DNA from: an uncultured Gammaproteobacteria bacterium
GTDB lineage: Bacteria; Patescibacteriota; Patescibacteriia; UBA2196
NCBI GenBank assembly: GCA_964435065.1
Contig: CAYSXS010000001.1
Location: 20,538 to 84,537 of the forward strand
DNA: 64,000 nt
Direction: 5' to 3'
Shown: positions 7,590-47,022 of the stretch, piece by piece
How positions within the stretch are numbered: position 1 is the stretch's first letter
How the letters are laid out: the number at the start of each line of letters is the position of its first letter
Notes under the pieces: model-generated
The model's database searches: none
Told to the model about the DNA's origin: nothing
Seen by the model: only the letters and a program-made list of their open reading frames with translations
Translations under genes and position numbers: made by a program

Positions 7590-7794
7590 GTATGTGTGCA
7601 TCTGAAGTTTGGCACTAATTTTCCTATATTAAAAGTAGTAGCTCTCAATAAATGAAAAAGGATATATCTAACACCAAAACTCCACCCAAACCCCACAAAA
7701 ATTAGTGGGGGACTTGGGTGGAAGAGAATGGACACTCCTTAAGGATTTAATTAATGTCGATTCTCTGTAGCCAGATATACGGTGTTATACGACG
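7590..7794 (+). repeat. Copy A of a repeated non-coding element family. It has the 5' box GTATGTGTGCATCTGAAGTTT and the 3' box CCAGATATACGGTGTTATACGACG.
   Basis: Homologous copies lie at 45820-45932 and 46905-47022. Internally it carries a strong GC hairpin (7681-7720: CCACCCAAACCCCAC-aaaaatta-GTGGGGGACTTGGGTGG). Confidence 0.6.
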
Positions 7795-7835
7795 TAATCT
7801 AAAAGCCGATTCATTATAAATTTTGGTAATTTATT
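7781..7835. repeat. Left arm of a ~55-bp imperfect inverted repeat; its partner is at 8056-8116
   Basis: GGTGTTATACGACGTAATCTAAAAGCC...ATAAATTTTGGTAATTTATT compared with the reverse complement of 8056-8116, GGCGTTATACGACATAATAAAAAGCC...AATAATTTTGGTAATTTATT. The matching core AATTTTGGTAATTTATT is 17 bp. Confidence 0.6.
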
Positions 7836-7836
7836 T

Positions 7837-7995
7837 ATTTTGATCCCTTAGTATTTCCAACACTTTTTCTGGTGGATTGCCGTACCCTTCGCCAGTGTAT
7901 TTATCTGCAACAGCTTTTAGTTCCGGCTTGGAAGCGATAAGATCATTTATTGTATTTTGAGGCGATATTTCGCCTGCGTTTTCTTTCTCCATAAA
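7837..7995 (-). CDS. Possible small ORF (53 aa) between the inverted-repeat arms. This may be non-coding.
   Basis: MEKENAGEISPQNTINDLIASKPELKAVADKYTGEGYGNPPEKVLEILRDQNK. It is GC-richer than its surroundings and has no recognisable family. Confidence 0.2.
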
Positions 7996-8055
7996 ATTTT
8001 TGCGTTATTAATTAATGTTAAAATATATAGAATTATCTTTATACGTCGACCCGAC

Positions 8056-8116
8056 AATAAATTACCAAAATTATTAATAAAATATATAGAGGCTTTTTAT
8101 TATGTCGTATAACGCC
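8056..8116. repeat. Right arm of the ~55-bp imperfect inverted repeat. It overlaps the start of GC-rich element copy 1.
   Basis: See 7781-7835. Confidence 0.6.
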
Positions 8117-8366
8117 GACGGATAGGCGAAGCCTAACGAAGGACTTTCCGCAGGATGTAAGCCGAAGGCTTACAGACTAAGGAAAGGACTGAGTTAGGTT
8201 TGGGCCGAGCAGGGTGAGTGCAGGATCTGGGCGAGCCGCTTATCCGTTGTTGTCAGAAGAATCGTGAGCCTCTAGAAGGCCCAAGCCTATCCGTCGGCGT
8301 TGTCAAAAATTGAGGAGCAAGACTGGAACGAAGTGGAAGGCGAGCGAACGATATTTTTGACAACTC
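8104..8366 (+). repeat. GC-rich 261-bp structured element, copy 1. Candidate structured ncRNA or recombination site.
   Basis: Identical except for one mismatch (260/261 positions) to 47546-47808. It contains a nested perfect 16-bp inverted repeat, ACGCCGACGGATAGGC (8112-8127) pairing with GCCTATCCGTCGGCGT (8285-8300). Internal helices include GTAAGCC-gaa-GGCTTAC and TTGGGCC...GGCCCAA. A second 12-bp stem joins GTTGTCAAAAAT (8299-8310) with ATTTTTGACAAC (8353-8364). Confidence 0.85.
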
Positions 8367-8536
8367 GTTATTATCTGGCCTTTTTGAATATAATATACAA
8401 TATTTTGTATGTTATATGAATATTTGATATAAATCAGTTTTTGTTTATAATTTCATCTTAATTCTAGCTAAAATATGACCTTTATGCAAATAAAGTGCCA
8501 TTTACTAGAACGAAGAAATAGTATAAGATTAAGTAT

Positions 8537-9589
8537 ATGAAGTTACTGTTTTTTACTAGAAAAATAAATAGAAACGACCCAAAAGCAGGGTTTGTTTCGG
8601 ATTGGGTGGAGAAACTGGCTAATGAGGTTGGTTTTTTATATATTTTGGTTTGGCAAAAGTCTAAAGCAGAGAATTTGCCAAAAAATGTTAAATTGATCGA
8701 ATTGCCAAAGAATAAAATATTAAGACTGTGGATTTTAAAATTTAAGCTTTTTAAATATATTCCTAAGGTTGATGGTGTGTTTACACATATGATGCCTATT
8801 TATCCAATTTTAGCTGGTTTTTTTACAAAGATCTTTAGAAAAAAACTTGTTCATTGGTATATGCATAAGAGTGTAGATTGGAAATTAAAGTTATCTAACT
8901 GGTTTGTTGATGAATATGTTTCAGCTTCTAAAGAAAGTTTTAGGTTAAAAACTAAAAAACCAGTCAATATATTTGGTCACGGGATAAATATTAATAAGTT
9001 TAATTTTTTAAATAAACAAGTTGAGAATGAAAATTTTAATATTCTAAGTGTAGGAAGAATAAGTCCAACTAAGAATATTGATACTTTGATTAAAATTGCA
9101 GAGCAAATTCAATTGAATAACCCAGAGTTTAGAGATAAATATATTTTTCAAATAGTTGGTGGCCCAGGGTTAGTATCTCAACAGAAATATTATTTAGATC
9201 TAATAGAAGAAGTTAAAGAAAAAGATTTAAATAATGTTGTTGATTTTATCGGTCCTTTACCTCAAGAAGAAATTTTAGAGTATTACAAAAATTGTGATTT
9301 GTTTATTAATCTATCAGATACAGGTTCAATAGATAAGGTTGTTTTAGAAGCTATGGTGAGTAATAAATTGGTTTTAACTTCAAACGAGGCGTTTAAAAAG
9401 ATTCTTCCTTCAGAACTGTTTTGTGAATCTAAAGATGTAGAATATTTGATTGATAAGATAAAAGAAATGTATTCCATACCAGAAGAGAAGAAAAAAGAAT
9501 TACAACAGCGATTAAAATATGAAGTAATTACTAATCATAATTTAGATAACTTAGTAAAAAAAATAGTGAAACTATATGAAAAAAATTGA
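8537..9589 (+). CDS. GT-B fold glycosyltransferase (GT4-like)
   Basis: C-terminal FINLSDTGSIDKVVLEAMVSNKLVLTSNEAFKKIL. It is the first gene of a ~22-kb co-directional gene run. Confidence 0.6.
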   Translation: MKLLFFTRKINRNDPKAGFVSDWVEKLANEVGFLYILVWQKSKAENLPKNVKLIELPKNKILRLWILKFKLFKYIPKVDGVFTHMMPIYPILAGFFTKIFRKKLVHWYMHKSVDWKLKLSNWFVDEYVSASKESFRLKTKKPVNIFGHGININKFNFLNKQVENENFNILSVGRISPTKNIDTLIKIAEQIQLNNPEFRDKYIFQIVGGPGLVSQQKYYLDLIEEVKEKDLNNVVDFIGPLPQEEILEYYKNCDLFINLSDTGSIDKVVLEAMVSNKLVLTSNEAFKKILPSELFCESKDVEYLIDKIKEMYSIPEEKKKELQQRLKYEVITNHNLDNLVKKIVKLYEKN

Positions 9590-10118
9590 TTTAGGATGTG
9601 GTAATGCAAAACGTGATAAAGAAAGTATTGGGGTTGATGCGGTAAAACTACCTGGAGTTGATTTTGTTTGTGATATTGATAAGGAAAAATTACCATTTGA
9701 GGACAATGAAATTGATGAAGTTTATTCAAGACATCTTTTTGAACATCTTGAGAATTTTTTCTTTGTTATGAAAGAGGTTCATCGTGTTTTAAAGCCTGAA
9801 GGGCAATTAGTTCTAAAAGTGCCATATTTTGCAGCACCAACTTCATATTCAGATCCAACACATAAAAGATTTTTTGGTATTTACAGTTTTCAATGTTTTG
9901 ATCCAACAAGTGGAAAATATAGTTATCGTGAAGTAGAAAACACAAAGTTTGAATTAATCTCTGTAAGATATTCGTTTCACTATGGATTTTTATCTAAGTT
10001 TTTTGAGAAGCTTTTTAATAAGAGTAAGGGTGTTCAAGCTAAGTATGAAAGGTATTTGTGCTATTTCATTCCTGCTTACGATTTAAAATTTATTCTAAAA
10101 CCAATCAAAGATGTTTAA
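9576..10118 (+). CDS. Class I SAM-dependent methyltransferase
   Basis: Motif I DLGCGNAKRDKESIGVDAV, plus the acidic D/E loop. Confidence 0.75.
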   Translation: MKKIDLGCGNAKRDKESIGVDAVKLPGVDFVCDIDKEKLPFEDNEIDEVYSRHLFEHLENFFFVMKEVHRVLKPEGQLVLKVPYFAAPTSYSDPTHKRFFGIYSFQCFDPTSGKYSYREVENTKFELISVRYSFHYGFLSKFFEKLFNKSKGVQAKYERYLCYFIPAYDLKFILKPIKDV

Positions 10119-10989
10119 AAGAAAAGAACTAATCAAAAGAGAACTGTTTTACTTTCGTAAAAGTCTTTTAGAATACAAAAGATTTTGGGCATATGTTTAT
10201 TATAAATATATATTTTCTAAAAAAATTTTAAAACAAGATAAAGTTTTAGAAAAGCCTGTTAATAATCCAAATTTATCTGTTCATGTATTAACTTGTCATT
10301 GGGATTTCAAAATGTTTTTTTGGTCTTTATCCAGTTATTATAAATCATTTGAAACAATAGGACAGTTATTTATTCATAATGATGGCACACTAAGCGTAAA
10401 AGAAGTTGATTTAATAAAAAAGTTTTTCCCAAGTTCTAAAATAATAGATGCTAGGACTTTTGACAAAGAGTTTTCTTTTAAATTAGACCAATATCCAGTT
10501 TTTAGAGATATACGTGCAAAGAATTTTGATTTTTTCTCTTTTAAAAAGATCATAGATCCATTTTTGGCTTCAGATAAAGATATGTGCCTTATTTTTGATA
10601 CTGATATTTTGTGGTTTAAAAAACCAACTGAATTAGAAGAACAAATACAAAATGGCTGTGAAAAATCTTTCATGCAGAAAAACAATAGTTATAACGATGC
10701 AGAGATTGATAAAAAATTAACTAAGTTTAATGCCGGCATTATGCTTTATGCTAGAAAGAATTTTGATACACAAATATTAACAGATTTTTTTAAGGGTCTA
10801 GATCAGAGTAATAAGGATGATTTACATTTTGCTGATCAGACAGGACATGTAAAATGTTTAAAGAACCTAGAGGCGCTACCAGAAGATAGATATATAATTA
10901 GAGGTGATGTTAATGAAAATATAGTAGCAAAACACTATACTGCTCCCAGAAGACCTTTGTTTTATATAGATGGTATTAGGAAGTTATAA
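10111..10989 (+). CDS. Putative GT-A fold nucleotide-diphospho-sugar transferase (GT8-like)
   Basis: DxD motif CLIFDTDILWF together with a NAGIMLY motif reminiscent of GT8 NxGVMLxN. Confidence 0.4.
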   Translation: MFKRKELIKRELFYFRKSLLEYKRFWAYVYYKYIFSKKILKQDKVLEKPVNNPNLSVHVLTCHWDFKMFFWSLSSYYKSFETIGQLFIHNDGTLSVKEVDLIKKFFPSSKIIDARTFDKEFSFKLDQYPVFRDIRAKNFDFFSFKKIIDPFLASDKDMCLIFDTDILWFKKPTELEEQIQNGCEKSFMQKNNSYNDAEIDKKLTKFNAGIMLYARKNFDTQILTDFFKGLDQSNKDDLHFADQTGHVKCLKNLEALPEDRYIIRGDVNENIVAKHYTAPRRPLFYIDGIRKL

Positions 10990-12031
10990 AAATTATATGA
11001 AAATATGTTTTTTTGGTAATTACATTTCAGATTATTCCAGAGTAAAAGTTTTGCGTAAAGGTTTTCAGCAAAATGATGTTGAGATTTTTGAATGCCATAC
11101 TAGAAAAACAGGTTTAAAGAAATATTTAGATTTATATAACCAACACAAAAAGATTAGAAATAAGTATGATGTTATCTTAGTTATGATGGGAGGACAAACA
11201 TTGGTTTGGTTTGCAAAGCTATTAACAAAAAAGAAATTAATTTTTGATGCTTTTACTTCTTTATATTTAACAAACATTGAAGATAGGAAAACATGCACAC
11301 CTGAAAGTTTCAAGGCTAAATATTATGCTTGGTTAGATAAAGCTTCTTGTAAAAAGGCAGATAAGGTTTTGTTAGATACTGATGCACAGATACAATATTT
11401 TATTGATAAATATAAGTTAGATAAAGATAAATTTATACGAGTTTTTGTTAGTTCAGACAATGAATGTAATTTAGAAAAAGAAAAGAATAATAAGTTTATT
11501 ATTCATTGGCATGGATATATTGTCCCGCTTTATAGTTTAGAAACAGTTATTAAATCAGCAAAAATATTAGAGAAATATGAAGATATTGAATTTCAGATAG
11601 TGACTCGTTTTAATAGTAAGTATGAGAAAATAAAAGAACTAACAGAAAAGTTAGAATTAAAGAATATTAAATTCTACCCAGAAACAGATTACGAAGGAGT
11701 AGCTAAATTTGTTAATAAAGCAGATGTTTGTTTAGGAATATTTGGGAACAACAAGAAAGCACAAGTTGTAATTCCTAACAAGGTTTACGAAGCAATAATT
11801 TGTGCTAAACCAGTTATTACTGCAAATCACAAAGTTATAGATGAGGTATTTACTAATGAAGATAATATTTTAACAGTTTTGCCGGAAGACGAAAAAGATT
11901 TAGCAAATAAAATATTGAAATTGAAAGATAATAGTGATTTAAGGTATAGAATTGGTCAATCAGCCCATACTTTGCATATTAACAACCTTAAACCAAAACA
12001 AATTGTTAAGGAATTAATAACTAAAATTTAG
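10970..12031 (+). CDS. Hypothetical protein, possibly a GT-B-like glycosyltransferase C-terminal domain
   Basis: ...CLGIFGNNKKAQVVIPNKVYEAIICAKPVITANHKVIDEVF resembles a GT-B C-terminal Rossmann domain, but no EX7E motif is present. Confidence 0.3.
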   Translation: MVLGSYKNYMKICFFGNYISDYSRVKVLRKGFQQNDVEIFECHTRKTGLKKYLDLYNQHKKIRNKYDVILVMMGGQTLVWFAKLLTKKKLIFDAFTSLYLTNIEDRKTCTPESFKAKYYAWLDKASCKKADKVLLDTDAQIQYFIDKYKLDKDKFIRVFVSSDNECNLEKEKNNKFIIHWHGYIVPLYSLETVIKSAKILEKYEDIEFQIVTRFNSKYEKIKELTEKLELKNIKFYPETDYEGVAKFVNKADVCLGIFGNNKKAQVVIPNKVYEAIICAKPVITANHKVIDEVFTNEDNILTVLPEDEKDLANKILKLKDNSDLRYRIGQSAHTLHINNLKPKQIVKELITKI

Positions 12032-12034
12032 TTT

Positions 12035-12703
12035 ATGTTTTATTTCTCAGGAACACGAAAACCAGATTATAAGAACTTGAATAAAGATATATATAATAAT
12101 TATTGGAAGGATAGAGGATATATAATGCGTGATAAGTTAATGGAACGAGAGATTGTCTTTTTAGATTGGATTAAACCAAACAGCAAGGTATTAAGCGTAG
12201 GTTGTGGTAATTCTAGATTACTTTATGAGTTACAAAAACAAAAACAATGTGAAGTTTTTGGGATTGATATATCACCAGAAGTTGTAGATGGTTTAAAACA
12301 AAACAATATTCCATCTGAGGTTCAGGATATTACAAAAGAAGATTTTTCTTTATCTAATAATTATGACTATATTGTAATGAGTGAATTATTAGAACATTTG
12401 GTTATGCCAGAGAATTTATTAGAAAAAGTAAGACATAGTGCAAAACATTTAATTTTATCAGTTCCTAATTCTGCATTTTATCGTTATCGTCTAGGTTTAT
12501 TATTTAAAGGAAGGTTTTGTACTCAATGGGCAAAACATCCAGCAGAACACTTAAGATATTGGAGCCATAAAGATTTTTTAGATTGGTTAGAAGCATTAGA
12601 TTTTCAAATTAAAGAATCTAAACCTTCAAATGGATTTTTTTTAAAAGATATTTGGCCAAACATGTTTGGTCACCAAATTTGTTATTTAATAAATAAGAAA
12701 TAA
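12035..12703 (+). CDS. Class I SAM-dependent methyltransferase
   Basis: VLSVGCGNSRLLYEL (motif I) and YDYIVMSELLEHL (motif II/III). Confidence 0.7.
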   Translation: MFYFSGTRKPDYKNLNKDIYNNYWKDRGYIMRDKLMEREIVFLDWIKPNSKVLSVGCGNSRLLYELQKQKQCEVFGIDISPEVVDGLKQNNIPSEVQDITKEDFSLSNNYDYIVMSELLEHLVMPENLLEKVRHSAKHLILSVPNSAFYRYRLGLLFKGRFCTQWAKHPAEHLRYWSHKDFLDWLEALDFQIKESKPSNGFFLKDIWPNMFGHQICYLINKK

Positions 12704-13852
12704 ATGAAAATATTATATATCTCAAATTCAAGAATTCCAACAGAAAAAGCATATGGTATTCAAATAATGAAGACGTGTGAAGCTTTTGGTTTGCAAAATA
12801 AAAAGATAGAGTTGGTTTTACCAACTAGAAAAAATAAGAAGTTTAAGAATATAAGCCCTTTTGATTATTATTCTGTTAAAAATTGTTTTAGAATAAAAAA
12901 AATTAAAACTTGTGATCCTAATTTTTTAATGAAATTACCAAAAGGTATATATATAAAATTTCAAGGATTGTTTTTTATTTTAAGATTATTTTTTTATCTA
13001 TTATTTAAAAAAAATAAGTCTGAGTATATTTTTTATACTCGTGATGAATATTTGTTACCTTTATTGCATAAATTTTCAGATAAAGTTATTTGGGAAGCTC
13101 ACACCTTACCAAAGAACACAGATAGATATTTAAAAAGTTGGCAAAAGTGTTATAAAATAATTACTATTAGCAAAGCCTTAAAAAGCGAGTTGGAGTCTTT
13201 AAATATTAAACAGGAAAAGATGTTTGTTGCTCATGATGGAGTAGACCTAGAGGAGTTTGAGCTTTCTGCTTTTAATTTACAAAAATCAAGAAAAAAATTA
13301 GGTTTACCTTTAGATAAAAAGATTATAATGTACACGGGGCACTTATATGACTGGAAAGGCGTACAGGTTTTAGCTGATTCAACTAATTTTTTATTGGATA
13401 ATCAAATGATAGTTTTTGTTGGTGGAACTCACTCAGATATTAAGATTTTTCAAAAGAAAAACATGCAATTAATTAAAGATAATAAAATTTTACTTTTAGG
13501 GCACAAAAATCCAAAACTAATTCCTGAATATTTACAATCAGCAGACGTGCTTATTTTACCCAATTCAGCCAAAGATAATAAATCAAAATGGACCTCACCA
13601 ATGAAACTTTTTGAATATATGGCTTCTGGAGTACCTATTGTTGCTTCAGGACTGCCAAGCATAAAGGAGGTTTTAAATAAAGATAATTCAATTTTAGTTA
13701 GTCCGGATAGCCCCAGGGACATTTTTGATGGGATTAAAATAGTTTTGGATAATAAGGAATTATCAAATAAGATTAGTAAACAAGCCCTACAAGACGTACA
13801 AGACTATACGTGGAATAAAAGAGCAGAGAAAATCTTAGAATTTATACAGTAA
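12704..13852 (+). CDS. Glycosyltransferase family 4
   Basis: SPMKLFEYMASGVPIVASGLPSIKEVL. Confidence 0.75.
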   Translation: MKILYISNSRIPTEKAYGIQIMKTCEAFGLQNKKIELVLPTRKNKKFKNISPFDYYSVKNCFRIKKIKTCDPNFLMKLPKGIYIKFQGLFFILRLFFYLLFKKNKSEYIFYTRDEYLLPLLHKFSDKVIWEAHTLPKNTDRYLKSWQKCYKIITISKALKSELESLNIKQEKMFVAHDGVDLEEFELSAFNLQKSRKKLGLPLDKKIIMYTGHLYDWKGVQVLADSTNFLLDNQMIVFVGGTHSDIKIFQKKNMQLIKDNKILLLGHKNPKLIPEYLQSADVLILPNSAKDNKSKWTSPMKLFEYMASGVPIVASGLPSIKEVLNKDNSILVSPDSPRDIFDGIKIVLDNKELSNKISKQALQDVQDYTWNKRAEKILEFIQ

Positions 13853-13860
13853 AATAACTT

Positions 13861-15678
13861 ATGTTAAATTGGATTAATAAAAATTATAAACTCATTTTAA
13901 TCTTAATAGTTTTAATAACTCTCTTGCTTAAAATCTTGCCTTTTGAAGTTCGTTCCTGGACAATGGATGCAGACAGCCAGATTGTTAAAGAGGCTCTTCA
14001 AATAGGAGAGTCAGTAACAAGTGGGGATTGGGAATTTTTAAAAGAACCAGTCCTGTTTCCTTTTATTGGCCCATATATCTATTTGTTTTTTTATGGTTTA
14101 TTTTTTTTAATAGGAAAATTAATTGGATTGTTTTCAAGTAGTACAGAGTTTGTAGATTATATATATTTTCATATTCAGAGTCTCTATTGGTGGAGTAGGA
14201 TTTTAATTGCAGTTTTTGGAACATTATTGATTCCGTTAGTCTTTTCTATCACACGCAGAATAATTCAAAAGATTGATCAACAAAAAGCGATTGTGTTATC
14301 TCTTTTTGCATCTAGTTTGGTGGCGTTGAATTTAATTTTAAATATTTTCTCTCAACAACCACGTCCACATGTTCTTGTGGCTTTTTTTATTCTTTTAACT
14401 TTCTATTTTTATCTCAGATTTTTGGATTATAAAAAAATTATAGATTATTTTTTATTAAGCTTATCTTGTGGATTAGCTATTGGTGTTTTACAAAACGGTA
14501 TATTTGCAGTGATCTTTTTTGTTTTAGCAAGTTATTATTTATTTAAAGATACTTATCTAAAGACAAATAAGGTTTTTGCTAATTTTTCTTGGTTAAAGTT
14601 TTTATTAGCTGGATTAATTATTTTAATAATTTTTGTCATAAGTTATCCATATGCAATTTTGAATTTTTCTTCTGTGTTAGAAGCACAAGGAAAGTTTGAG
14701 TCTGTAAATGGGTTTGATTTTACTTTGAGTAGTGGATCTCAAACATTCTCTGGTATAAATGGAAAGGGGATTAATATTTTGATACGTGGTTTATTGTTTT
14801 ATCACCAAGTATTAAGTTTTATTTTTTTATTAACTTTTTTATTGTATATATTTTCGAAATTTAGAAAAAAACAGTTGTATAACAAGATTAAGAATGTTGT
14901 TTTTGATAGAAGTTTAGTTGGTTTATATTTATTCACCATACTATATATTTTAATTCTAATTATATATGATGGAGCACGTATTAGGTTTATGAGTCCATTA
15001 ACTCCTTTTTTGTGTGTTATTGGAGCAGTATTTTTATTAAAATACATTATGCAAGCCAAAACATCGGTGAAAAGAGTTATTTTAGGGTTGATAATGGTTT
15101 TGATGTTATTTGAGTTTGTCCAAGTATTGCGTTTTGTACATATTTTATCACAACCATATACACGCGATGAGTCTGTTGAATGGATCCAAAAAAATATTCC
15201 TAAGGATGAATTAATTTTAATTCAAAGCCGTGGACCAATTTTAATACCAAATCGAAAGAGTTTAGAATTACAAGAAAGTATTAATCCAGAATCTTTAACA
15301 ACTAAGGATAATTTTTTATTAGAATTACCTTTAGATAAATATCCGGCGGATAATAACTATATTCTACGTTTAGGATTGGTTGGTAGTGAATTCCAAACAG
15401 AAGAAGAGTTAGAATCCTTGTTACTAGAATTAAAACCTGATTATTTCGTCTTGTTTTACACCACCCCTAAACCAGAAGATTTTATTGATGATTTTAAAGA
15501 ATTTAGATTAGCTGAGAAGTATGGGGAAAGTATAAAAAAATTTACACCGTTTAAAAACGAAGATAAGAAACAAAGAATGATGTTTACTTGGGCTTTTGAA
15601 AATCCAATTGTTGATTTATGGAATTTTAAACAATTAGGTCCCATTATTGATGTTTATGAATTAAAATGGGACAATTAA
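13861..15678 (+). CDS. GT-C fold membrane glycosyltransferase (ArnT/PMT-like, GT39/GT83 type) with a C-terminal soluble domain
   Basis: About 12 TM helices. The first-loop motif MDADSQIVKEALQIGESVTSGDWEFLKEP matches the ArnT/PMT 'DE..GDW' signature. Confidence 0.55.
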   Translation: MLNWINKNYKLILILIVLITLLLKILPFEVRSWTMDADSQIVKEALQIGESVTSGDWEFLKEPVLFPFIGPYIYLFFYGLFFLIGKLIGLFSSSTEFVDYIYFHIQSLYWWSRILIAVFGTLLIPLVFSITRRIIQKIDQQKAIVLSLFASSLVALNLILNIFSQQPRPHVLVAFFILLTFYFYLRFLDYKKIIDYFLLSLSCGLAIGVLQNGIFAVIFFVLASYYLFKDTYLKTNKVFANFSWLKFLLAGLIILIIFVISYPYAILNFSSVLEAQGKFESVNGFDFTLSSGSQTFSGINGKGINILIRGLLFYHQVLSFIFLLTFLLYIFSKFRKKQLYNKIKNVVFDRSLVGLYLFTILYILILIIYDGARIRFMSPLTPFLCVIGAVFLLKYIMQAKTSVKRVILGLIMVLMLFEFVQVLRFVHILSQPYTRDESVEWIQKNIPKDELILIQSRGPILIPNRKSLELQESINPESLTTKDNFLLELPLDKYPADNNYILRLGLVGSEFQTEEELESLLLELKPDYFVLFYTTPKPEDFIDDFKEFRLAEKYGESIKKFTPFKNEDKKQRMMFTWAFENPIVDLWNFKQLGPIIDVYELKWDN

Positions 15679-15681
15679 AGT

Positions 15682-20337: not shown

Positions 20338-20378
20338 AAGTAATTATAGATTGTATATGCACTAAGTATTTATATAAT

Positions 20379-23598: not shown

Positions 23599-23601
23599 TG
23601 C

Positions 23602-33799: not shown

Positions 33800-33800
33800 G

Positions 33801-35646: not shown

Positions 35647-35672
35647 ATATACTTTATATCATTTTTTGTTAT

Positions 35673-37091: not shown

Positions 37092-37156
37092 GTTTATATT
37101 TTTATTTATCCTAACTGTGGTATAATTGTATCAACTTTGGGTGTGATAGATTTTGG

Positions 37157-37185
37157 TTGACATTTTACTTAACTAAGTATATGAT
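37157..37185 (+). promoter_or_regulatory. Putative sigma70 promoter for brnT
   Basis: TTGACA - 17 nt - TATGAT, about 25 nt upstream of the 37211 start. Confidence 0.45.
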
Positions 37186-37210
37186 GAACATATACATAAT
37201 GATATAATTT

Positions 37211-37775: not shown

Positions 37776-37777
37776 AT

Positions 37778-40048: not shown

Positions 40049-40049
40049 T

Positions 40050-40460: not shown

Positions 40461-40465
40461 TACAT

Positions 40466-42682
40466 ATGTTTAATATACAAAACAAATTAATATATTCCAT
40501 AATAATTTTCTTGTTAGTGTTTTTGCCTTTAGGAATAAAGACTGAGGCAAAAGAACAAGAACTTCCTGCTCATCAAGCAGGAGAGCTTCTAGTTAAATTA
40601 AAAACTAGTGAAAAGATTTTTAAATTTAAATTTAGTTCAGATATTGAATTACAAGAATTAATGGATATATATAATTCTCAAGACAGTGTTGAGTATGCAG
40701 AACCAAACTATATCTATCGCGCTAGTTTAGAACCAAAAGATACTTTTTACACTCAACAATTGTATTTATCAAAAATTAAAGCAAATCGTGCTTGGGACAT
40801 TACAACTGGTTCCAGAAGGGTTACAATAGCAATTGTAGATTCTGGTGTTGATTTAGATCATCCAGATTTAAGACAAAATATTTGGTTTAACAATAAAGAA
40901 ACAGTTAATAATAATATAGATGATGATAGGAATGGATATATAGATGATATATATGGTTGGGATTTTGTTGGAGATGATAATGACCCAAATCCTGATACAA
41001 GTGTAGAATACAATAAGACAGGAATAAATCATGGTACAGTAATTTCAGGAATTGCTGCTGCTCAAGGGGGAAACAAAGAAGGAATAGCTGGTATAAGTTG
41101 GTCTAGTAAAATTATGGCACTAAGGGTTTTAGATAGCGAGGGTTATGGAACAACAGACAAGGTTGCTAAAGCTATTGATTATGCAGTTAATAATAAAGCT
41201 GATGTTATAAACCTAAGCTTCGTTGGTACTGGTAAAAGTTTAACTTTAGAAAGAGCAATTAAACGAGCGTATGATGCAGGAGTAATAGTAGTAGCAGCTG
41301 CCGGTAATGAAGTCGCTTCTGGTGTAGATATGGGCAAAGAAGAGAATAAACAATATCCTGTTTGTCATGATGGGCCAAATAGTGAGAATTGGGTGATTGG
41401 AGTAGCTTCAATAGATAATGATGATCATTTAGCTAGCTTTTCAAATTATGGTTCAAGTTGTATTGATTTAGTTACCCCTGGTGTACGTTTGTTTAGTACT
41501 GTGTATCACGATGAATCTAATAGTGATTTCAAAGACTATTATCAACACGGTTGGACAGGTACTTCTGTTTCTGCACCACAAGTAGCAGGAGCGTTTGCTT
41601 TAGTAAAATCATACAAGCCATCTTTTTCTGCTCAACAGATTAAAGATTTGTTTTTAAATAATGCGATAGATATAGATAGCAAGAATCCAACATATAGGAA
41701 TAAGTTAGGTAGTGGTTTAATGAATGTTTATGCAACCATTTCTAAAGCTTTAGGTGAACAACCAGAAGAAGCAGTTAAAAAAGAATTAGTTATCACAGCT
41801 GCTGGACAAGGTGGTGGGCCACATGTAAAAGCTTTTAGAAAAAACTATCTAGAAAATGAATTTTTTGCTTTTGATGCATACTATAGAGGAGGGCTTTCTG
41901 TTGCTTCAGGAGATTTAGATAGAGATGGGGATATAGAGGTTGTGGTTGGTTTGGGAGCAGGAACACATCCATGGTTTAAGATTTTTTCTGAAGAAGGTGA
42001 ATTACAAAGTCAATTCATGGCTTACGGAGAAGGTTTTCGTGGTGGAGTAGAAGTTGCCATAGGTGATGTTGATGGAGATGGTATAAAAGAGATAATTACA
42101 GGGGCTGGTCCTGGAGGAGGTCCACACATTAGAATTTTTTCACATAATGGAGCGTTAAAAAATCATTTCTTTGCTTTTGATAGAAATTTTACAGGTGGAG
42201 TAGAATTAGCAAGCGGAGATGTTAATGGGGATGGTAAAGATGAAATTATTGTAGTTCCAAAATCAAATCGTGAATCAAAGGTTAAAGTATTTAATTTAAA
42301 AGGGGAGTTAATTAGTGAATTTTTAGCTTTTGATTTAGGGGTTAAGAATGGAATACATGTTGCAGCAGGAGATTTAGATAATGACGGAAAAGATGAAATA
42401 ATTATTGGAGCAGGTTATGGCAATAGTCCACAGATAAAAACTTTTGATTTAAATGGTAATAATATAACTGAATTCACATCTTATCACCCTAATTTCCGTG
42501 GTGGTGTGTATGTTGCATCTGGAGATACTGATTCGGATGGGTTTGATGAGATAATAGCAGGTGCTGGTAAAACAGGAGGTCCTCATGTAAGGGTATTTAA
42601 CAAAAATGGGGGATTAGAATTTCATTTCTTTGCGTATAACGAGAACTTTAGAGGTGGAGTTCGTGTGTCTTCAAGTAACTAA
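40466..42682 (+). CDS. Secreted subtilisin-like serine protease (S8) fused to a C-terminal FG-GAP-type repeat beta-propeller
   Basis: Signal peptide present. Catalytic triad motifs AIVDSGVD (Asp), HGTVISGIAAA (His) and GTSVSAPQVAGAFAL (Ser). These are followed by ~7 repeats of ...GGGPHVKAF...FFAFD..FRGGV.VA.GD.DGDG.DEII... Confidence 0.8.
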   Translation: MFNIQNKLIYSIIIFLLVFLPLGIKTEAKEQELPAHQAGELLVKLKTSEKIFKFKFSSDIELQELMDIYNSQDSVEYAEPNYIYRASLEPKDTFYTQQLYLSKIKANRAWDITTGSRRVTIAIVDSGVDLDHPDLRQNIWFNNKETVNNNIDDDRNGYIDDIYGWDFVGDDNDPNPDTSVEYNKTGINHGTVISGIAAAQGGNKEGIAGISWSSKIMALRVLDSEGYGTTDKVAKAIDYAVNNKADVINLSFVGTGKSLTLERAIKRAYDAGVIVVAAAGNEVASGVDMGKEENKQYPVCHDGPNSENWVIGVASIDNDDHLASFSNYGSSCIDLVTPGVRLFSTVYHDESNSDFKDYYQHGWTGTSVSAPQVAGAFALVKSYKPSFSAQQIKDLFLNNAIDIDSKNPTYRNKLGSGLMNVYATISKALGEQPEEAVKKELVITAAGQGGGPHVKAFRKNYLENEFFAFDAYYRGGLSVASGDLDRDGDIEVVVGLGAGTHPWFKIFSEEGELQSQFMAYGEGFRGGVEVAIGDVDGDGIKEIITGAGPGGGPHIRIFSHNGALKNHFFAFDRNFTGGVELASGDVNGDGKDEIIVVPKSNRESKVKVFNLKGELISEFLAFDLGVKNGIHVAAGDLDNDGKDEIIIGAGYGNSPQIKTFDLNGNNITEFTSYHPNFRGGVYVASGDTDSDGFDEIIAGAGKTGGPHVRVFNKNGGLEFHFFAYNENFRGGVRVSSSN

Positions 42683-42713
42683 AAAATATATATAATTAAA
42701 TAAAAATAAAATT

Positions 42714-43715
42714 ATGAATTATCCTTCAGGCAAAAAAAATATTTTAATTACTGGTGGGGCCGGTTTTATTGGCTCTCATTTATGTGATATCTTAGCTAAA
42801 GACAATCATGTAATTTGTATAGACAATTTTATCACTGGTAGTGAAAAACACATTGACCACTTACTTAAGAATCCTAACTTTGAGTTTATTAAACACGATG
42901 TCTCAGAACCTTTTAAGTTTGAAGATTTTCCTGAGTTAAAACAGTTTAAAGCAGAACTTCAAGGTGTTCAAGAAATTTATCATTTAGCTTGTCCAACTTC
43001 ACCTAAAGAATATAACAGGTTTCCAATTGAAACTTTAATTACAAACTCTCATGGTACGTTAAATACATTGCAGATAGCTAAGAAGTTTGGATCAAAGTTT
43101 TTGCTTCTTTCAACATCAGCAATATATGGAGATCAAGAAGGACATGTAAAAGAAGATAACTGGGGGAGTATTAATCCAATTGGCCCACGTTCTTGCTATA
43201 ACGAAGGTAAAAGGTTTACTGAAAGTTTAACTAGAAGTTTTCACACAAAAGAAGAAGTTGATACTAAAATAGCTAGAGTATTTAATACTTATGGCCCAAG
43301 AATGAAATTAGATGATGGTCGTATGATCCCAGACTTTATTGTGAACTCTCTGAAGAGTGAACCAGTTACTGTTTTTGGTTCAGAAGAAGAACAAGGAAGC
43401 TATTGCTATGTTCAAGATATGGTGGAAGGAATTATTCAATTAATGGCTGCAGATATTAATACACCTGTTAATTTAGGCAGTGATCACGCAGTTAAATTAG
43501 TTGATGTTGCTAAAAAAGTAATTAAAATGACAACCAGTGAATCAAAGATTGAATTTAAAGAATATCCTCCATATACAGCTAAACAAATTATCCCAGATAT
43601 TTCTTTAGCAAAAGAAACCTTTGATTGGTTCCCAATGGTTGGCTTAGATGATGGTTTAGAAAAAACTATTGAAAATATGCGTGTAAACTTAGGGGAATAC
43701 AAGGCAGAGCTTTAA
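42714..43715 (+). CDS. NAD-dependent epimerase/dehydratase, UDP-glucuronate decarboxylase-like (UXS/ArnA C-domain type)
   Basis: ILITGGAGFIGSHLCDIL, followed by a catalytic YNEGKR (YxxxK) motif. The overall pattern matches UXS1-type enzymes. Confidence 0.65.
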   Translation: MNYPSGKKNILITGGAGFIGSHLCDILAKDNHVICIDNFITGSEKHIDHLLKNPNFEFIKHDVSEPFKFEDFPELKQFKAELQGVQEIYHLACPTSPKEYNRFPIETLITNSHGTLNTLQIAKKFGSKFLLLSTSAIYGDQEGHVKEDNWGSINPIGPRSCYNEGKRFTESLTRSFHTKEEVDTKIARVFNTYGPRMKLDDGRMIPDFIVNSLKSEPVTVFGSEEEQGSYCYVQDMVEGIIQLMAADINTPVNLGSDHAVKLVDVAKKVIKMTTSESKIEFKEYPPYTAKQIIPDISLAKETFDWFPMVGLDDGLEKTIENMRVNLGEYKAEL

Positions 43716-43718
43716 ATT

Positions 43719-44378
43719 ATGAATATATACATAATCATACCGGTTTTTAATGAGGAGAATAACATCCAAACAACTTTGGGAGATTTAAAACAGTATGGTT
43801 ATACAATAATAGTAGTTGATGATGGTTCAAAAGATAAGACAGTAGAGATAGTAGAATCAATGAATGTAAAGGTGTTGAAACATAAAGTTAATCGTGGACA
43901 AGGAGCAGCTCTTCAAACAGGTACAACTTATGCAGTTCAAAAAGGAGCAGATATTATTGTACACTTTGATGGTGATGGTCAATTTTTAGCACAAGAGATT
44001 AAAGATTTAATTGAACCAATTAAATTTGAAAATTTAGATATTACTCTTGGATCAAGATTTTTAAAAGAAAATAAAGGAATGCCATGGCTAAAGAAATATA
44101 TTATCCATCCTGTTTCTAGAGTTATTAATACAATTTTTACAAGAATAAAGTTAACAGATGTGCATTGTGGTTTTCGGGCTTTATCAAAACAAGCAGCTGA
44201 GAAAATATATATTACACAAGATGGAATGTCTCATGGAACAGAGATTATTTCCCAAATCAAGAAATATGGGTTAAAATATCGAGAAGTTCCTGTAACGGTT
44301 ATATATAAAGAGTTTGGGCAAGGAATTAAAGGAGGATTTAATATATTAAAAGAATTATTATTAGGTAAATTTGTATAA
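43719..44378 (+). CDS. GT2 glycosyltransferase, soluble catalytic domain of the DPM1/Ppm1 type
   Basis: IIIPVFNEENNIQTTLGDL...IIVVDDGSKDKT...FDGDGQF. It has no TM helix, and the next gene is a small membrane protein. Confidence 0.7.
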   Translation: MNIYIIIPVFNEENNIQTTLGDLKQYGYTIIVVDDGSKDKTVEIVESMNVKVLKHKVNRGQGAALQTGTTYAVQKGADIIVHFDGDGQFLAQEIKDLIEPIKFENLDITLGSRFLKENKGMPWLKKYIIHPVSRVINTIFTRIKLTDVHCGFRALSKQAAEKIYITQDGMSHGTEIISQIKKYGLKYREVPVTVIYKEFGQGIKGGFNILKELLLGKFV

Positions 44379-44700
44379 ACATATGTTAATTCAAATCCTT
44401 TTATCAATATTTATACTTTTTGCAATTATTAGATTAATTGTGAAATTTAAAAAAACTGATGCTAAAGCATCAGGTTCATTATGGTTATTGTTTTGGATAA
44501 TAACTGTTGTAGCTGTTTGGGTACCAGATTTTTTAACTCAAGTAGCTAATCTGGTTGGTATTGGTCGTGGTGCAGATTTAGTTTTGTATGTTAGTGTTGT
44601 CGTTGTTTTTTATTTAATTTTCAAAATATATGTTAGATTAGAAAAGATAGAAAGGAATATTACTAAAGTAGTAAGAAAAGATAGTCTTAAAGAAGATTAG
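44371..44700 (+). CDS. Small membrane protein (DUF2304-like), a probable membrane partner of the upstream GT2
   Basis: 109 aa with 3 TM helices. It overlaps the upstream GT2 by 8 nt. Confidence 0.45.
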   Translation: MYKHMLIQILLSIFILFAIIRLIVKFKKTDAKASGSLWLLFWIITVVAVWVPDFLTQVANLVGIGRGADLVLYVSVVVVFYLIFKIYVRLEKIERNITKVVRKDSLKED

Positions 44701-44703
44701 GAT

Positions 44704-45735
44704 ATGGTATACATTGTAATTTTAACTTGGAATGGAATCAAATATTTACCCAAATTGTTTACAAGTTTGGGTAATTTAGTTTTTGATGAAAATAAGTTGA
44801 AAATAGTTGTTATTGATTCAGGATCAACAGATGGGAGTAGAGAATATTTGGAGGATTTAGATAATATACATTTAATAAAATTAGATAAGAATATCGGGTT
44901 TGTTAAGGGTAATAATTTGGGAATGCAATATGCTTTGGATAATAAAGCAGAATATGTTGTGTTATTAAACCAAGACATAGAAGTTAAAGAAGATTTTTTA
45001 GATTATTTAGTAAATACAGCAGAAAGCGATAAAAAGATTGGTATAGTACAGCCCTTAATGATGTATTATGAAAATAGAGAAGAAATTAATTCTAAGGGTA
45101 ATCTTTTACACTATCTAGGATATGGATATTGTGAAGGTAACCATGAAAAAGTTACAAATAACAAACAAACAAAAGAAATTGAATATGCTTCTGCTGCCGC
45201 AGTGATATATAAGGCAAAGATGTTAAAAGAAATAGGGTTATTTGATGAAAATATTTTTGCTTATCATGAAGATAGTGAAATTTGTTTAAGGGCTAAATTA
45301 AGAGGATACAAAATATATTTAGAACCTAAATCTATTGTTTATCATGATTATTCTTTCCCAACAGGAAAGAATAAAGAAAGATACTTTTGGATGGAAAAGA
45401 ATAGACTATACATAATCCTTAAATTCTATAAACTAAAAACAATCTTTTTGATTTTGCCGATGATATGGTTTATGGATTTAGGACAGATATATTTTGCAAT
45501 TACTAAAAGATATTTTTATCAATGGTTAAGATCAAGGTTTTGGTTTGTTTTTAATTTAAACAGTTTTTTAAAAGCTAGAAGAGACATACAAAAGAATAGA
45601 CAAATTTCTGATAAAGAATTAACTAAGAATTTCACTAGTGAAATTCTTTATCAAGAAGTTTCTAATCCTTTATTAGATAAAATTGCTAATCCAATAATGA
45701 AGGTCTATTGGAAAGTAGTTAAAAAATTTGTTTGA
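44704..45735 (+). CDS. Glycosyltransferase family 2
   Basis: VYIVILTWNGIKYLPKLFTSL...IVVIDSGSTDGS, plus the DxD-type motif LNQDIEV. Confidence 0.75.
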   Translation: MVYIVILTWNGIKYLPKLFTSLGNLVFDENKLKIVVIDSGSTDGSREYLEDLDNIHLIKLDKNIGFVKGNNLGMQYALDNKAEYVVLLNQDIEVKEDFLDYLVNTAESDKKIGIVQPLMMYYENREEINSKGNLLHYLGYGYCEGNHEKVTNNKQTKEIEYASAAAVIYKAKMLKEIGLFDENIFAYHEDSEICLRAKLRGYKIYLEPKSIVYHDYSFPTGKNKERYFWMEKNRLYIILKFYKLKTIFLILPMIWFMDLGQIYFAITKRYFYQWLRSRFWFVFNLNSFLKARRDIQKNRQISDKELTKNFTSEILYQEVSNPLLDKIANPIMKVYWKVVKKFV

Positions 45736-45780
45736 AATAAAAAATAGCCGTTGGTCGCAGCTATTTTTTATTTCAAACAA
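45729..45780 (+). terminator. Rho-independent terminator (long A/U-rich stem) at the end of the + operon
   Basis: GTTTGAAATAAAAAATAGC-cgttggtcgca-GCTATTTTTTATTTCAAAC. It overlaps the stop codon of the GT2 gene. Confidence 0.65.
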
Positions 45781-45819
45781 GGTGATATTTAATCAGTTTT
45801 AAAATATTTTTTGAATAAC

Positions 45820-45932
45820 GTATGTCTGTATCTGAAGTTTTTTGCTTTCTTCATTACTATCGAAAGCAAAATTAGTAATTTAAGCGAAGGGCGAGCCGAG
45901 CCCTTAAGCCAGATACACGCCGTTAAGCGACC
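45820..45932 (+). repeat. Copy B of the repeated non-coding element family (5' box GTATGTCTGTATCTGAAGTTT; 3' box CCAGATACACGCCGTTAAGCGACC)
   Basis: Homologous to 7590-7794 and 46905-47022. Internal hairpins are TTTTGCTTTC...GAAAGCAAAA and AAGGGC-gagccga-GCCCTT. Confidence 0.6.
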
Positions 45933-46091
45933 CCAACGGAATGAAATGGAGTGAGAGCACAGCGTGGCCCGAGTTCAAAAAATATTTTTCGTCTTTATTC
46001 ATCAGATAGTCTTTCGTATATTTCTTATAAATTTGATTTTTTCGTTTTGAAAAATGAAAGAGGGGTTAGCGGTGAATTTCATTTTTTAGAA

Positions 46092-46655
46092 TTAATAATA
46101 TTTCTCTATTCCTCCAAAACCTATTAGTTTGTTTTCTCTTGTTTTGTTGATGAAGTTTTTTAGCCTTTTTTTGAATTCTTCTGGATGCTTTTGTACTCTA
46201 TGAATATAGGCAATACGAATTCTTTTGTATGTATCAGAAAATGTATTGTAATTTTTCCATGCGATTTTATCCTCCTTTACAGCATCAATGATGTCTTTTG
46301 GAAAAACAAACTTTTCTGAGGCAATTTTCTTTGCTTTGTCCAATATTAGGGGATGAATCATGTCATGTTTTAAAAGCCATTTTATTCTTTCTTTGTTTTG
46401 CTGAGAATAAGTGCTTTTGGGATTTCTTGGAGAAAAACGTTGAACACTACTCTCTTCATCAAAAGATTTAATCGTGCTATCGATCCAACCAAAACATAAT
46501 GACTCCTCTACGGCATCGTTGTATACAATTCTTATTTTACCTGAAGATTTTTTCGGATACATCAACCAGACATCTTTTTCTTTATCAAAATTCTTTTCCA
46601 GCCATTTACGCCAGTCTTTCCTATTTGTCACATAGAGTGTTTTTTCTATATTCAT
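46092..46655 (-). CDS. YdeI/OmpD-associated family protein (bacteriocin-protection-like, DUF1801-related)
   Basis: ...DVWLMYPKKSSGKIRIVYNDAVEESLCFGWIDSTIKSFDEESSVQRFSPRNPKSTYSQQNKERIKWL... Confidence 0.6.
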   Translation of the reverse strand: MNIEKTLYVTNRKDWRKWLEKNFDKEKDVWLMYPKKSSGKIRIVYNDAVEESLCFGWIDSTIKSFDEESSVQRFSPRNPKSTYSQQNKERIKWLLKHDMIHPLILDKAKKIASEKFVFPKDIIDAVKEDKIAWKNYNTFSDTYKRIRIAYIHRVQKHPEEFKKRLKNFINKTRENKLIGFGGIEKYY

Positions 46656-46699
46656 TTTATTTATTATAAATTAATGAATGATAATTTTAAATATTTTCA

Positions 46700-46924
46700 T
46701 GATCCATTTATTTGAGTCGCAAAATTATTTAAAATCTGTGCTAACTCAACAGGTTTACCAAGCATGGGAAAATGCCTAGAATCGATATCATTTTTTTTGA
46801 CTTGAAGATTCTTAATCATATTATCCTGAATTTTCTCACTAAATGCCTTATTTTTTTTCAGGCGAATATATAGGGAATTAACAGGGATGTCTTTTGTGTT
46901 TAATGTATGCGTACATCTGAAGTT
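46700..46924 (-). pseudogene. C-terminal fragment of an alpha/beta-hydrolase fold gene whose 5' part is missing
   Basis: The minus-strand translation ...DIPVNSLYIRLKKNKAFSEKIQDNMIKNLQVKKNDIDSRHFPMLGKPVELAQILNNFATQINGS* carries the catalytic-His 'HFPML' C-terminal signature of alpha/beta hydrolases. The frame is open to ~46924 and then terminates exactly inside repeat copy C. No start or N-terminal domain is present. Confidence 0.5.
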
Positions 46925-47022
46925 TCAGCTCCTTCTTTGTAGCTTATCAATATATTAACAGATAAAAAAGATACAAAGAAGGAGCTGAAATTTGGATGAA
47001 CATTTGGCGTAGTTGTACGAAG
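46905..47022 (+). repeat. Copy C of the repeated non-coding element family (5' box GTATGCGTACATCTGAAGTTT; 3' box CATTTGGCGTAGTTGTACGAAG)
   Basis: Perfect 17-bp hairpin TCAGCTCCTTCTTTGTA...TACAAAGAAGGAGCTGA. It abuts the truncated hydrolase gene. Confidence 0.6.

Follow-up and report, generated by a model that had tools for sequence, protein, structure and literature searches.

The 64-kb stretch of contig CAYSXS010000001.1 analyzed here (the window; all coordinates are in its + strand numbering) contains three copies of a short element, designated A, B and C, which lie at gene ends and share a conserved 5′ box. The question raised by this locus is whether such elements act as structured RNA, persist as selfish repeats, or serve as sites of DNA recombination. 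An earlier note on this DNA had left the choice between a small RNA family and miniature inverted-repeat transposable element (MITE)-like or att-remnant sequences. The evidence given below leads us to conclude, with a probability of roughly 0.8, that the elements are attC-type sites of an integron-like gene-cassette system in a Patescibacteria (candidate phyla radiation, CPR) bacterium, and that the system includes a Xer-type tyrosine recombinase. The att part of the earlier suggestion is therefore retained, as the elements behave as recombination sites, whereas a small RNA as the primary function and a MITE origin are not. The window has ∼29% GC and a strongly positive GC skew, is rich in glycosyltransferase genes, and encodes proteins whose database neighbours are labelled Patescibacteria or Parcubacteria.

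Direct reading of the sequence places the 5′ boxes at 7590, 45820 and 46905, as originally described, with all three elements on the + strand. When three or fewer mismatches are allowed, the pattern TATGYNTGYATCTGAAGTTT matches three times in the window compared with 0.19 matches expected, and none of 100 shuffles reached three. The 3′ box CAGATAYACGSYGTTAWRCGAC, for which the chance expectation is 0, is clear in A (7772-7793) and B (45910-45931); in C, the corresponding sequence (CATTTGGCGTAGTTGTACGAAG, ∼47000-47021) is degenerate and offset by one base. Within each element the two boxes base-pair, and the 3′ box also supplies the GTTR that is the partner of a TAAY located immediately before the 5′ box.

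Element B (45816-45937, +) is the best family member in the window (70.4 bits, E 4e-17 with the covariance model R1 described below) and is predicted to form a three-way junction as single-stranded DNA (ssDNA). It begins with TAAC (45816-45819; putative crossover at 45818|45819, where the bar marks the cut), followed by the 5′ box (45820-45840) and the 3′ box, within which the right arm GTTAAGC occupies 45922-45928. Element C (46901-47021, +; 40.7 bits, E 1e-8), for which an ssDNA fold is likewise predicted, contains TAAT (46901-46904; putative crossover at 46903|46904), the 5′ box (46905-46925), a perfect long hairpin 2, degenerate versions of stem 1 and hairpin 3, and the right arm GTTGTACGAA (47012-47021). 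Element A (7586-7799, +; 38.2 bits, E 6e-8) consists of TAAT (7586-7589; putative crossover at 7588|7589), the 5′ box (7590-7610), a long insert in hairpin 2, the junction motif ACTTGGGTGGAAG (∼7713-7725) and the 3′ box with the right arm GTTATACGACGTAAT (7784-7798). As reported before, A is ∼90-100 nt longer than B and C; alignment to the covariance model puts 103 nt of A, including the CTCCACCCAAACCCCAC/GTGGGGGACTTGGGTGGAG hairpin, in the loop of hairpin 2. Part of this extra ∼100 nt (7661-7715, - strand) is a partial inverted copy of hairpin 2 and the junction motif (AAGTCCCCCAC...GTGGGGTTTGGGTGGAG; a weak R1 match, E=0.85), which pairs with A's own junction motif and thereby gives rise to the feature previously described as a 15-bp GC hairpin.

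Relatives of the three elements were sought in two collections. A scan of a one-genome-per-species set, outside of which the source genome lies, returned 18 matches to GTATGNNTRYATCTGAAGTTT, about the number expected by chance, and the sole true relative among them was on a 740-kb Patescibacteria contig (L024). A scan of metagenome contigs yielded 62 loci, ∼35 of them with true copies, revealing a large family residing in Patescibacteria contigs. The concern that the motif is simply a common promoter word is not borne out, as there are three exact copies in 64 kb and only chance-level matches outside Patescibacteria in the genome-collection scan. The family consensus reads ATTnnnnnnTAAC-GTAT-GCGATTATCTG-AAGTT(hairpin)AATTT-GGG(hairpin)CC-CAGATAATCGC-T-GTTAnnnGAWGT.

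RNAalifold analysis of the aligned copies produced a three-way junction. Outermost is the R stem, nnnnnTAAC paired with GTTAnnnnn, followed by an asymmetric bulge with GTAT on one side and T on the other; further inward, a covarying stem of 11 bp carries hairpin 2, whose AAGTT/AATTT base stacks upon it, and a third hairpin branches off at the junction. R1 was built from 27 copies. Over 67 distinct R1 matches, 94% of the cells pair as compared with 71% in shuffles and 26-45% with slid partners, absolute values that an R1-fitted alignment biases towards structure; the first MAFFT alignment gives the same pattern. Double-sided changes occur at 21 of the 27 pairs, and the G·U (G·T in DNA) at the base of hairpin 2 is conserved in 65 of 67 copies. 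The TAAC/GTTA pairing is nearly invariant (AU in 66/66 and 65/66, CG or UG in 65/66), and the distal hairpins range from 20 to more than 100 nt. Within L024 alone, the main stem shows the compensatory changes GCGTATATCTG/CAGATATACGC, CGGCATATCTG/CAGATATGCCG and CGAGTATCCG/CGGATACTCG. Compensatory changes in the stems alongside conserved boxes, which the earlier note had suggested looking for, are thus seen once the family copies are aligned.

A fold maintained in this manner could belong to a structured small RNA, either a 3′-untranslated region (3′-UTR) or terminator-like element or a cis-regulatory RNA, with any patterns at the DNA level being secondary. The strong covariation, the conserved G·U, the GNRA-like loops, the location at gene ends and the slightly better fold of the + strand than of the - strand are all features that an RNA would account for. 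The elements match no Rfam family: a search of the whole window at the gathering threshold returned RNase P only, and E-value mode searches around the elements returned only miRNA-type hairpin noise. A tRNA/tmRNA scan found nothing. Most of the flanking open reading frames (ORFs) are on the opposite strand, so the G·U-bearing strand would be antisense to them. Considered with the flank, boundary and linkage data that follow, these results leave an RNA as the primary function very unlikely; a secondary role as an RNA may exist, but it would not account for those data.

Other structural candidates were considered in passing. Inspection by eye revealed no core motifs of self-cleaving ribozymes or of group I or group II intron boundaries, and no reverse transcriptase or TnpA/TnpB gene nearby that would accompany a retron or IS200/IS605 ends. 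An excess of G·T over A·C was also evaluated as an indicator of the folding strand. The counts (67 vs 26 in stems and 18 vs 7 in flank pairs) are in the expected direction, but both base composition and the RNA-trained model confound them, and this line of evidence was dropped.

The arrangement of the elements is more informative as to their function. Each locus contains two to five copies on the same strand; in L024 the copies at 2321, 2825, 3536 and 6616 are all on one strand, with one or a few small opposite-strand ORFs between them. ORFs are opposite to the element strand in every case in L024, L030 and L088, in 5/6 cases in L087 and in 3/4 in the window, such that each ORF has its own site after it. 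The cargo includes toxin-antitoxin pairs, methyltransferases and small secreted proteins. Five positions beyond the TAAC/GTTA core were then compared between flanks by counting Watson-Crick pairs. The right flank of a copy and the left flank of the next copy form 3.2 of 5 pairs (p<1e-5), whereas the two flanks of the same copy form 1.97/5, indistinct from the 1.91/5 for random pairs taken from different loci. Perfect complementarity is found in 11/30 neighbour pairs vs 4.6% of random pairs. Clear cases of this flank rule are present in L035, L055, L076 (twice), L065, L081, L039, L030, L074, L085, L087 and L088.

These statistics rule out a simple extension of the hairpin through pairing of an element's own flanks. 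An RNA hairpin would require precisely such pairing, so its failure favours DNA recombination sites; in addition, the complementarity between neighbours spans 0.3-3 kb and ORFs of either orientation, which an RNA element does not readily explain. The flank rule is instead the relation that is left when a circular cassette with a complete hairpin opens within its R box and inserts, a hallmark of integron cassettes.

The window itself follows the rule, with complementary flanks of 15 bp between A and the first of two GC-rich copies, 14 bp between C and the second, and 12 bp between the GC-rich sequence and the simple site described below. The A right flank GTTATACGACGTAAT (7784-7798) is the reverse complement of ATTATGTCGTATAAC (8099-8113), located just before GC-rich copy 1, and the C right flank GTTGTACGAAGTTC is the reverse complement of GGAATTTCGTACAAC, located just before copy 2. 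Since the two flank pairs differ in sequence, they covary across ORFs of 53 aa (-) and 81 aa (+), respectively. From these relations three ORF-containing cassettes can be proposed, all on the + strand. The cassette A/53aa (7589-8112, 524 nt) would comprise element A and a 53-aa ORF at 7831-7992 (-), and its 15-bp inverted repeat includes 5/5 pairs beyond GTTA/TAAC. The cassette B/OmdA (45819-46903, 1085 nt) would contain B, a GC-rich tail (∼45929-45975), a conserved AT-rich stretch and a 187-aa YdeI/OmdA-like ORF at 46092-46655 (-); by direct reading, the B right arm GTTAAGC pairs with the C left arm GTTTAAT over 7 bp, including two G·T. The cassette C/81aa (46904-47554, 651 nt), bounded by the inverted repeat GTTGTACGAAGTTC/GGAATTTCGTACAAC, would carry element C and an 81-aa ORF at 47196-47441 (+).

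Two clusters result. One, proximal to the recombinase gene, is ordered B/OmdA, C/81aa and a GC-rich ORF-less cassette (47555-47805). The other, 39 kb away and without a recombinase gene, consists of A/53aa followed by the same GC-rich cassette (8113-8363), and perhaps also holds a cassette with a 165-aa ORF (7051-7548, -). The latter may be bounded by a weak candidate minimal or simple site at 6995-7042 (+; TAAT-GTAACCG-TATATATGG-T-GTTAGG), which R1 detects in addition to A, B and C (21 bits; E=0.004 over the whole window, 0.0003 with filters off). No stable ssDNA fold is found for it, and direct reading shows that it has TATATATG in common with the recombinase-proximal simple site.

Repeated, intergenic, hairpin-forming sequences of which some (copy C and the 6995-7042 site) look decayed might also be MITE-like or repetitive extragenic palindrome (REP)-like selfish repeats, or worn att remnants of a phage or island, without a current function. 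Several properties of the elements are at odds with such an origin. There are no target-site duplications, nor direct duplications around A, B and C; the terminal repeats belong to neighbouring units rather than to a single copy, as own flanks score no higher than the random value; the structure is held by compensatory change across highly divergent copies; and the copies form ordered, one-strand arrays that end at a recombinase gene in 6/6 loci and obey the flank rule. We regard a MITE-, REP- or remnant-type explanation as highly improbable, even more so than the RNA explanation.

The GC-rich sequence also bears on cassette boundaries. With filters off, R1 detects both copies (33 bits, E 1e-7 for copy 1; 35 bits, E 3e-8 for copy 2) even though no GC-rich element was among the sequences used to build it, and the 261-bp GC-rich element of the earlier note is therefore a diverged family member. 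A ends 308 bp before copy 1 and C ends 522 bp before copy 2, in keeping with the spacing first noted. The composite module that had been proposed on this basis was in the right direction: element, ORF and GC-rich element make up adjacent cassettes. The two copies (8102-8377 and 47544-47819) are 98% identical over 276 nt and 100% identical over exactly 8111-8365 = 47553-47807, and the sequences flanking them are unrelated. The identical block has the AAC of the site at one end and that of ATTTTTGACAAC at the other, with 251 nt between the putative cuts at 8112|8113 and 8363|8364. Copy 1 (8113-8363, +; 251 nt, no ORF; fold z=-6.2) is made up of a family member at 8099-8264, a duplicated 3′ half ending in GTTGTCAAAAAT (8299-8310), 42 nt of cargo, and ATTTTTGACAA(C) at 8353-8364. 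Copy 2 (47555-47805, +) is identical to 8113-8363, and its family member lies at 47541-47706.

Comparison of strains places boundaries at the same point. In the related strains L030 and L057, an upstream anchor gene is common up to ...GAGCAGCTAAC, after which the sites and cassettes differ; the last, distal cassettes are again common, at 96.6% identity. Because the boundaries of both the duplication and the strain differences fall at the TAAC end, we place the crossover there, and a cassette on the + strand then reads C, site, GTTA flank, cargo, complementary flank and TAA. Two observations are those expected of mobile cassettes, the occurrence of the same GC-rich cassette in two contexts and the whole-cassette differences between L030 and L057, each with boundaries at the crossover. 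Identity and polymorphism boundaries at TAA|C are not a pattern anticipated for a small RNA. L030 also has a 1.87-kb insertion with a 517-aa ORF (4353-5906, +), probably an insertion sequence (IS) transposase, which interrupts the last cassette and is absent from the 97%-identical L057.

Additional contigs connect the two clusters of the window in new combinations. In metagenome contigs L006/L098 and L099, from two samples, the GC-rich repeat links the 53-aa cassette with the recombinase gene, and in contig L102 it links the 81-aa cassette with the glycosyltransferase gene at 8537; the two arrangements correspond to the reciprocal products of recombination between the GC-rich copies. The parental joints across the repeat are found in three Joint Genome Institute (JGI) contigs (L093, L096 and L097).

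A GC-rich tail (40-90 nt, type CCCGAGC-GNRA-GCGAGAGCCTGCAAGGCGTGG) comes after many copies of the family, B among them. The region from the 3′ half of B through the tail and the AT-rich stretch to the ORF stop (45877-46088) is 82% identical to L088 7148-7356, while the adjoining ORFs differ (OmdA-like in the window, radical SAM in L088). The tail and AT-rich stretch could be a conserved 3′-UTR, a terminator, or an accessory module that travels with the site.

A cassette system requires a place of insertion, and a candidate is located where the arrays end. The region from 47795 to 47880 (+) is attI-like and is conserved before the recombinase gene in five loci by alignment. It contains a simple site, TTTTTGACAA|C-TGGTT-TATATATGAAAAC (47795-47824), an inverted copy of its arm, AATTCGTATAAT (47825-47836), followed by GACCTTTATTTGT, a third arm copy, TGTATACGAATGT (47852-47864), and a TATAAT -10-like box (∼47869-47874). 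The general layout is ...nnnTAA|C, a spacer of 8-9 nt, TATnCGAAnT, an inverted arm, a direct arm and TATAAT, ∼100 nt before the start codon. Simple site 1 (8353-8378, +), at which the second cluster ends and which has no recombinase gene adjoining it, reads TTTTTGACAA|C-TCGTT-ATTATCTGG, and its right arm ATTATCTG is the family's conserved arm. For a cassette promoter Pc, a consensus scan gave 12 sites where 8.8 were expected, and those on the - strand around attI included no convincing one; the promoter and terminator scan was uninformative.

The arm TTATnnGAAGT corresponds to the motif in the conserved part of the 5′ box (ATTATCTGAAGTT) and to the right-flank consensus GTTAnnnGAWGT, and the two arms of the folded site carry the common motif RTTAnnnGAAGT. 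This common motif suggests that the 5′ box represents one recombinase-binding arm and the R stem the other, in which case the folded site would present an arm, a partly unpaired spacer and a second arm. At least one family element is found upstream of the recombinase gene on the same strand in all six loci for which upstream DNA is available (the window, L030, L087, L088, L110 and L111). The recombinase gene points away from the array, and the array terminates at the simple site. Linkage to a recombinase gene and to a simple site with the same arm motif is again not expected of a small RNA. Contigs with the recombinase gene (L001-L005, L089, L090 and L112) very often begin within 100-900 nt upstream of it. 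The cassette sites appear to be repeats that break assemblies, and arrays are therefore probably under-represented in Patescibacteria metagenome-assembled genomes.

The recombinase gene (47916-48749, +) starts ∼100 nt past GC-rich copy 2 and encodes a 277-aa tyrosine recombinase of the Xer 'Cand' or XerA/IntI-like type (Pfam Phage_integrase, 6e-44) with Phage_integrase and SAM-like domains. Among known recombinases, IntI and XerA are its closest relatives. It passes the NCBIfam XerA_Arch/integron integrase model (237 bits vs a cut-off of 220) and misses the integron integrase model TIGR02249 (226.6 vs 265), which it matches in two stretches. The best Protein Data Bank match is the integron integrase VchIntIA (2a3v, E 1e-44), relative to which 16 residues of the query (183-198) replace 59 residues of IntIA (180-238). 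With IntI1 of R46 the protein shares 31% identity; the alignment contains 48 gap positions, its two stretches differ by 42 residues, and nearly all of the gaps fall in the ∼195-251 region of IntI1, where a gap of ∼45 aa covers the IntI-specific additional domain. That domain, which reads extrahelical bases of the folded attC, has been considered defining for integron integrases (Ghaly et al., 2022; PMC9668308) and essential for integron function (Smyshlyaev et al., 2021; PMC8138268). Homologs number 6588 at E<1e-30, of which the best 120 are 65-79% identical and 270-293 aa long. Between loci, recombinase identity to the window protein is 39% for L030 and 69-71% for L087, L088, L110 and L111. 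The recombinase stop codon overlaps the start of a GT4 glycosyltransferase gene (48746-48749), an order also present in L087 and L089, and the gene seems to be part of a conserved chromosomal operon and not of a mobile element.

These properties bring in an alternative that differs little in mechanics from the integron-like system. The recombinase would be a housekeeping Xer whose primary role is chromosome dimer resolution, the simple site would be its dif-like site, and the cassettes would hijack the enzyme by means of a folded hairpin, as CTX phage, one of the integrative mobile elements exploiting Xer (IMEX), does with XerCD. The strong conservation and uniform length of the best 120 homologs are what a cellular enzyme would display, as are the absence of the IntI insertion together with the score above the XerA_Arch cut-off, the co-oriented gene overlapping a downstream housekeeping-type glycosyltransferase gene, and the synteny with ribosomal protein genes in L087. 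Candidate-phyla Xer-related recombinases have moreover been classified as the 'Cand' subgroup and listed with presumed-cellular enzymes (Smyshlyaev et al., 2021; PMC8138268). The combination typical of IMEX, a Xer-type enzyme lacking an element-specific domain and mimicry of an arm-spacer-arm site, is found here in both of its parts. Some single-Xer systems hold dif beside the xer gene, an example being XerS/difSL. A dif site would be expected near the terminus, but the cumulative GC skew climbs through 47.8 kb with no sign change, and the site is off any skew-defined terminus, the terminus being outside the window. The same cassette type also occurs at a second simple site 39 kb away, and a series of up to 4-5 cassettes, each with one ORF and with homogeneous sites, is the pattern of integrons, IMEX typically being few, large phages or islands. 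We consider an IMEX-type arrangement unlikely, while giving it more weight than either the RNA or the selfish-repeat explanation.

An integron-like reaction can be outlined from the architecture of the sites. The recombinase would bind both arms of the folded + strand, the second arm being ATTATCTGAAGTT, formed by the hairpin base stacking on the 11-bp stem. Tyrosine recombinases cut each strand at the 5′ edge of the spacer, and we accordingly place the predicted cut at TAA|C on the folded + strand. Cassettes would be released in circular form, the two complementary flanks coming together to complete the R stem. The predicted circle junction is ATTATGTCGTATAA|TGTATGTGTGCATCTG (also given as ATTATGTCGTATAA|TGTATGTGTGC) for the 53-aa cassette and GATATTTTTGACAA|CGCCGACGGATAGGC (also given as GATATTTTTGACAA|CGCCGACGG) for the GC-rich cassette. 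The circles would then insert at the double-stranded simple site (arm, spacer of 8-9 bp, arm TATnCGAAnT) ∼100 nt before the recombinase gene. The third hairpin departs from the helix exactly where the two stacked stems meet and may, speculatively, mark strand and register in the way that extrahelical bases do in attC.

At the DNA level the correspondence with integrons is extensive. Mostly single-ORF cassette arrays are found in both, as exemplified by the Vibrio superintegron and the archaeal integrons (Ghaly et al., 2022; PMC9668308). The sites end alike in ...AAC and GTT..., some family sites being exactly GCCTAAC/GTTAGGC, and both form an imperfect hairpin with an R stem, an unpaired spacer, an L stem and a variable distal part; the attC arrangement of R″/R′ boxes (RYYYAAC ... 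GTTRRRY), inner L boxes and a variable centre is present. In both, a cassette begins with sequence complementary to the inner R box of the site that it carries, each ORF has its site behind it, and the recombinase gene diverges from the cassette ORFs, the simple site lying between them. When the + strand of the window is taken as the 'bottom' strand of an integron, the layout is the canonical one. Homogeneous sites within a genome, ORF-less cassettes and clusters of attC sites lacking integron-integrases (CALIN) are further likenesses, and the second cluster of the window is CALIN-like. Five of the DNA-level features that define integrons are found here, and the defining protein feature is not: ∼45 aa are missing from the recombinase relative to IntI1 and VchIntIA. 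Further differences are a three-way junction that is conserved, also in sequence (GTATG, GAAGTT/AATTTGG), in place of conservation limited to the R boxes, the host phylum (Patescibacteria), and a degree of conservation of the recombinase far above that usual for IntIs.

Several observations weigh against the assignment as attC-type sites of an integron-like system. Covariation by itself fits folded DNA and RNA alike, and about one-third of neighbour pairs disobey the flank rule, exceptions that possibly stem from missed or decayed intermediate sites. No excised circle, circular junction or unambiguous rearrangement was seen in the contigs examined; the recombinant contigs L006/L098, L099 and L102 could reflect real rearrangement or could have been created by the assembler at an exact repeat of 255 nt, as they come from MEGAHIT and Logan assemblies, which leave a repeat of this length unresolved. 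The recombinase lacks the IntI-specific additional domain, is conserved in Patescibacteria and syntenic with housekeeping genes, and may primarily be a housekeeping Xer. The asymmetric bulge apparently lies on the crossover-bearing arm, apparently opposite to its location in canonical attC, for which the aadA1 attC of R46 was read. R1 applied to the class 1 integron of R46 matched no attC (best E 0.75). The missing protein feature, the unrecognized class 1 attC and the bulge on the other arm together point to an integron-like variant, not a canonical integron.

Three other Xer- or Cre-type systems help to delimit this variant. The single-stranded attP of CTX phage folds into a hairpin that mimics dif for XerCD. 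Like CTX phage and other IMEX, the present system has a Xer-type recombinase, a folded strand with two arms and a partly unpaired centre, an arm-spacer-arm target, and the capacity for tandem accumulation; it differs in a target off the GC-skew switch, tiny single-gene cassettes, ordered arrays with the flank rule, and a recombinase gene adjoining the site. The pdif modules of Acinetobacter plasmids are genes between 28-bp double-stranded XerC/D-type sites of alternating orientation. They too are small gene modules bounded by Xer sites and apparently moved by a Xer-type recombinase, whereas the sites studied here are folded, ∼100 nt long and in one orientation, with a dedicated insertion site beside the recombinase gene. 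Cre acts on symmetric double-stranded sites (loxP: ATAACTTCGTATA-GCATACAT-TATACGAAGTTAT) and moves no cassettes. The putative arm (TTATnnGAAGTT; TATACGAA in the attI region, 47812-47864) closely resembles the loxP arm TATACGAAGTTAT, and when the arms are aligned the predicted A|C cut, one base into a spacer of 8-9 bp, presumably matches the position of Cre cleavage.

We tentatively extend these conclusions in a proposal to which we give somewhat less than even weight: the conserved 'Cand' Xer-type recombinase may be a working integron-type integrase without the IntI domain that runs a chromosomal cassette platform, widespread across the phylum, with three-way-junction attC sites. Such a platform may be an independent invention from Xer/dif or a living ancestral state, and may be a main route of gene flux in these reduced symbionts. 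Full-text literature, with most subscription journals outside its scope, yielded no description of integrons or cassette arrays in Patescibacteria/CPR. If the proposal is true, the integron principle needs no IntI extra domain, the platform having a plain Xer-like recombinase and a differently built, three-way-junction site, and the transition from Xer to IntI would become directly testable. Patescibacteria, which have tiny genomes and few recognized mobile elements, would gain a concrete and apparently widespread route for acquiring and shuffling accessory genes. Repeats of ∼100-250 nt would explain the breaks in Patescibacteria contigs just before the recombinase gene, and standard pipelines would label such loci at best 'CALIN' or 'XerD'.

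Three further features of the window are unconnected with the cassettes. A bacterial RNase P RNA of class A lies at 56841-57214 (+); its score of 107 bits is barely over the gathering score of 100, and it has long insertions relative to the model. Four 27-nt tandem units occur within a coding region at 58827-58961, and FG-GAP-like repeats with a 153-nt period (41850-42657) are located inside the gene that precedes an epimerase gene.

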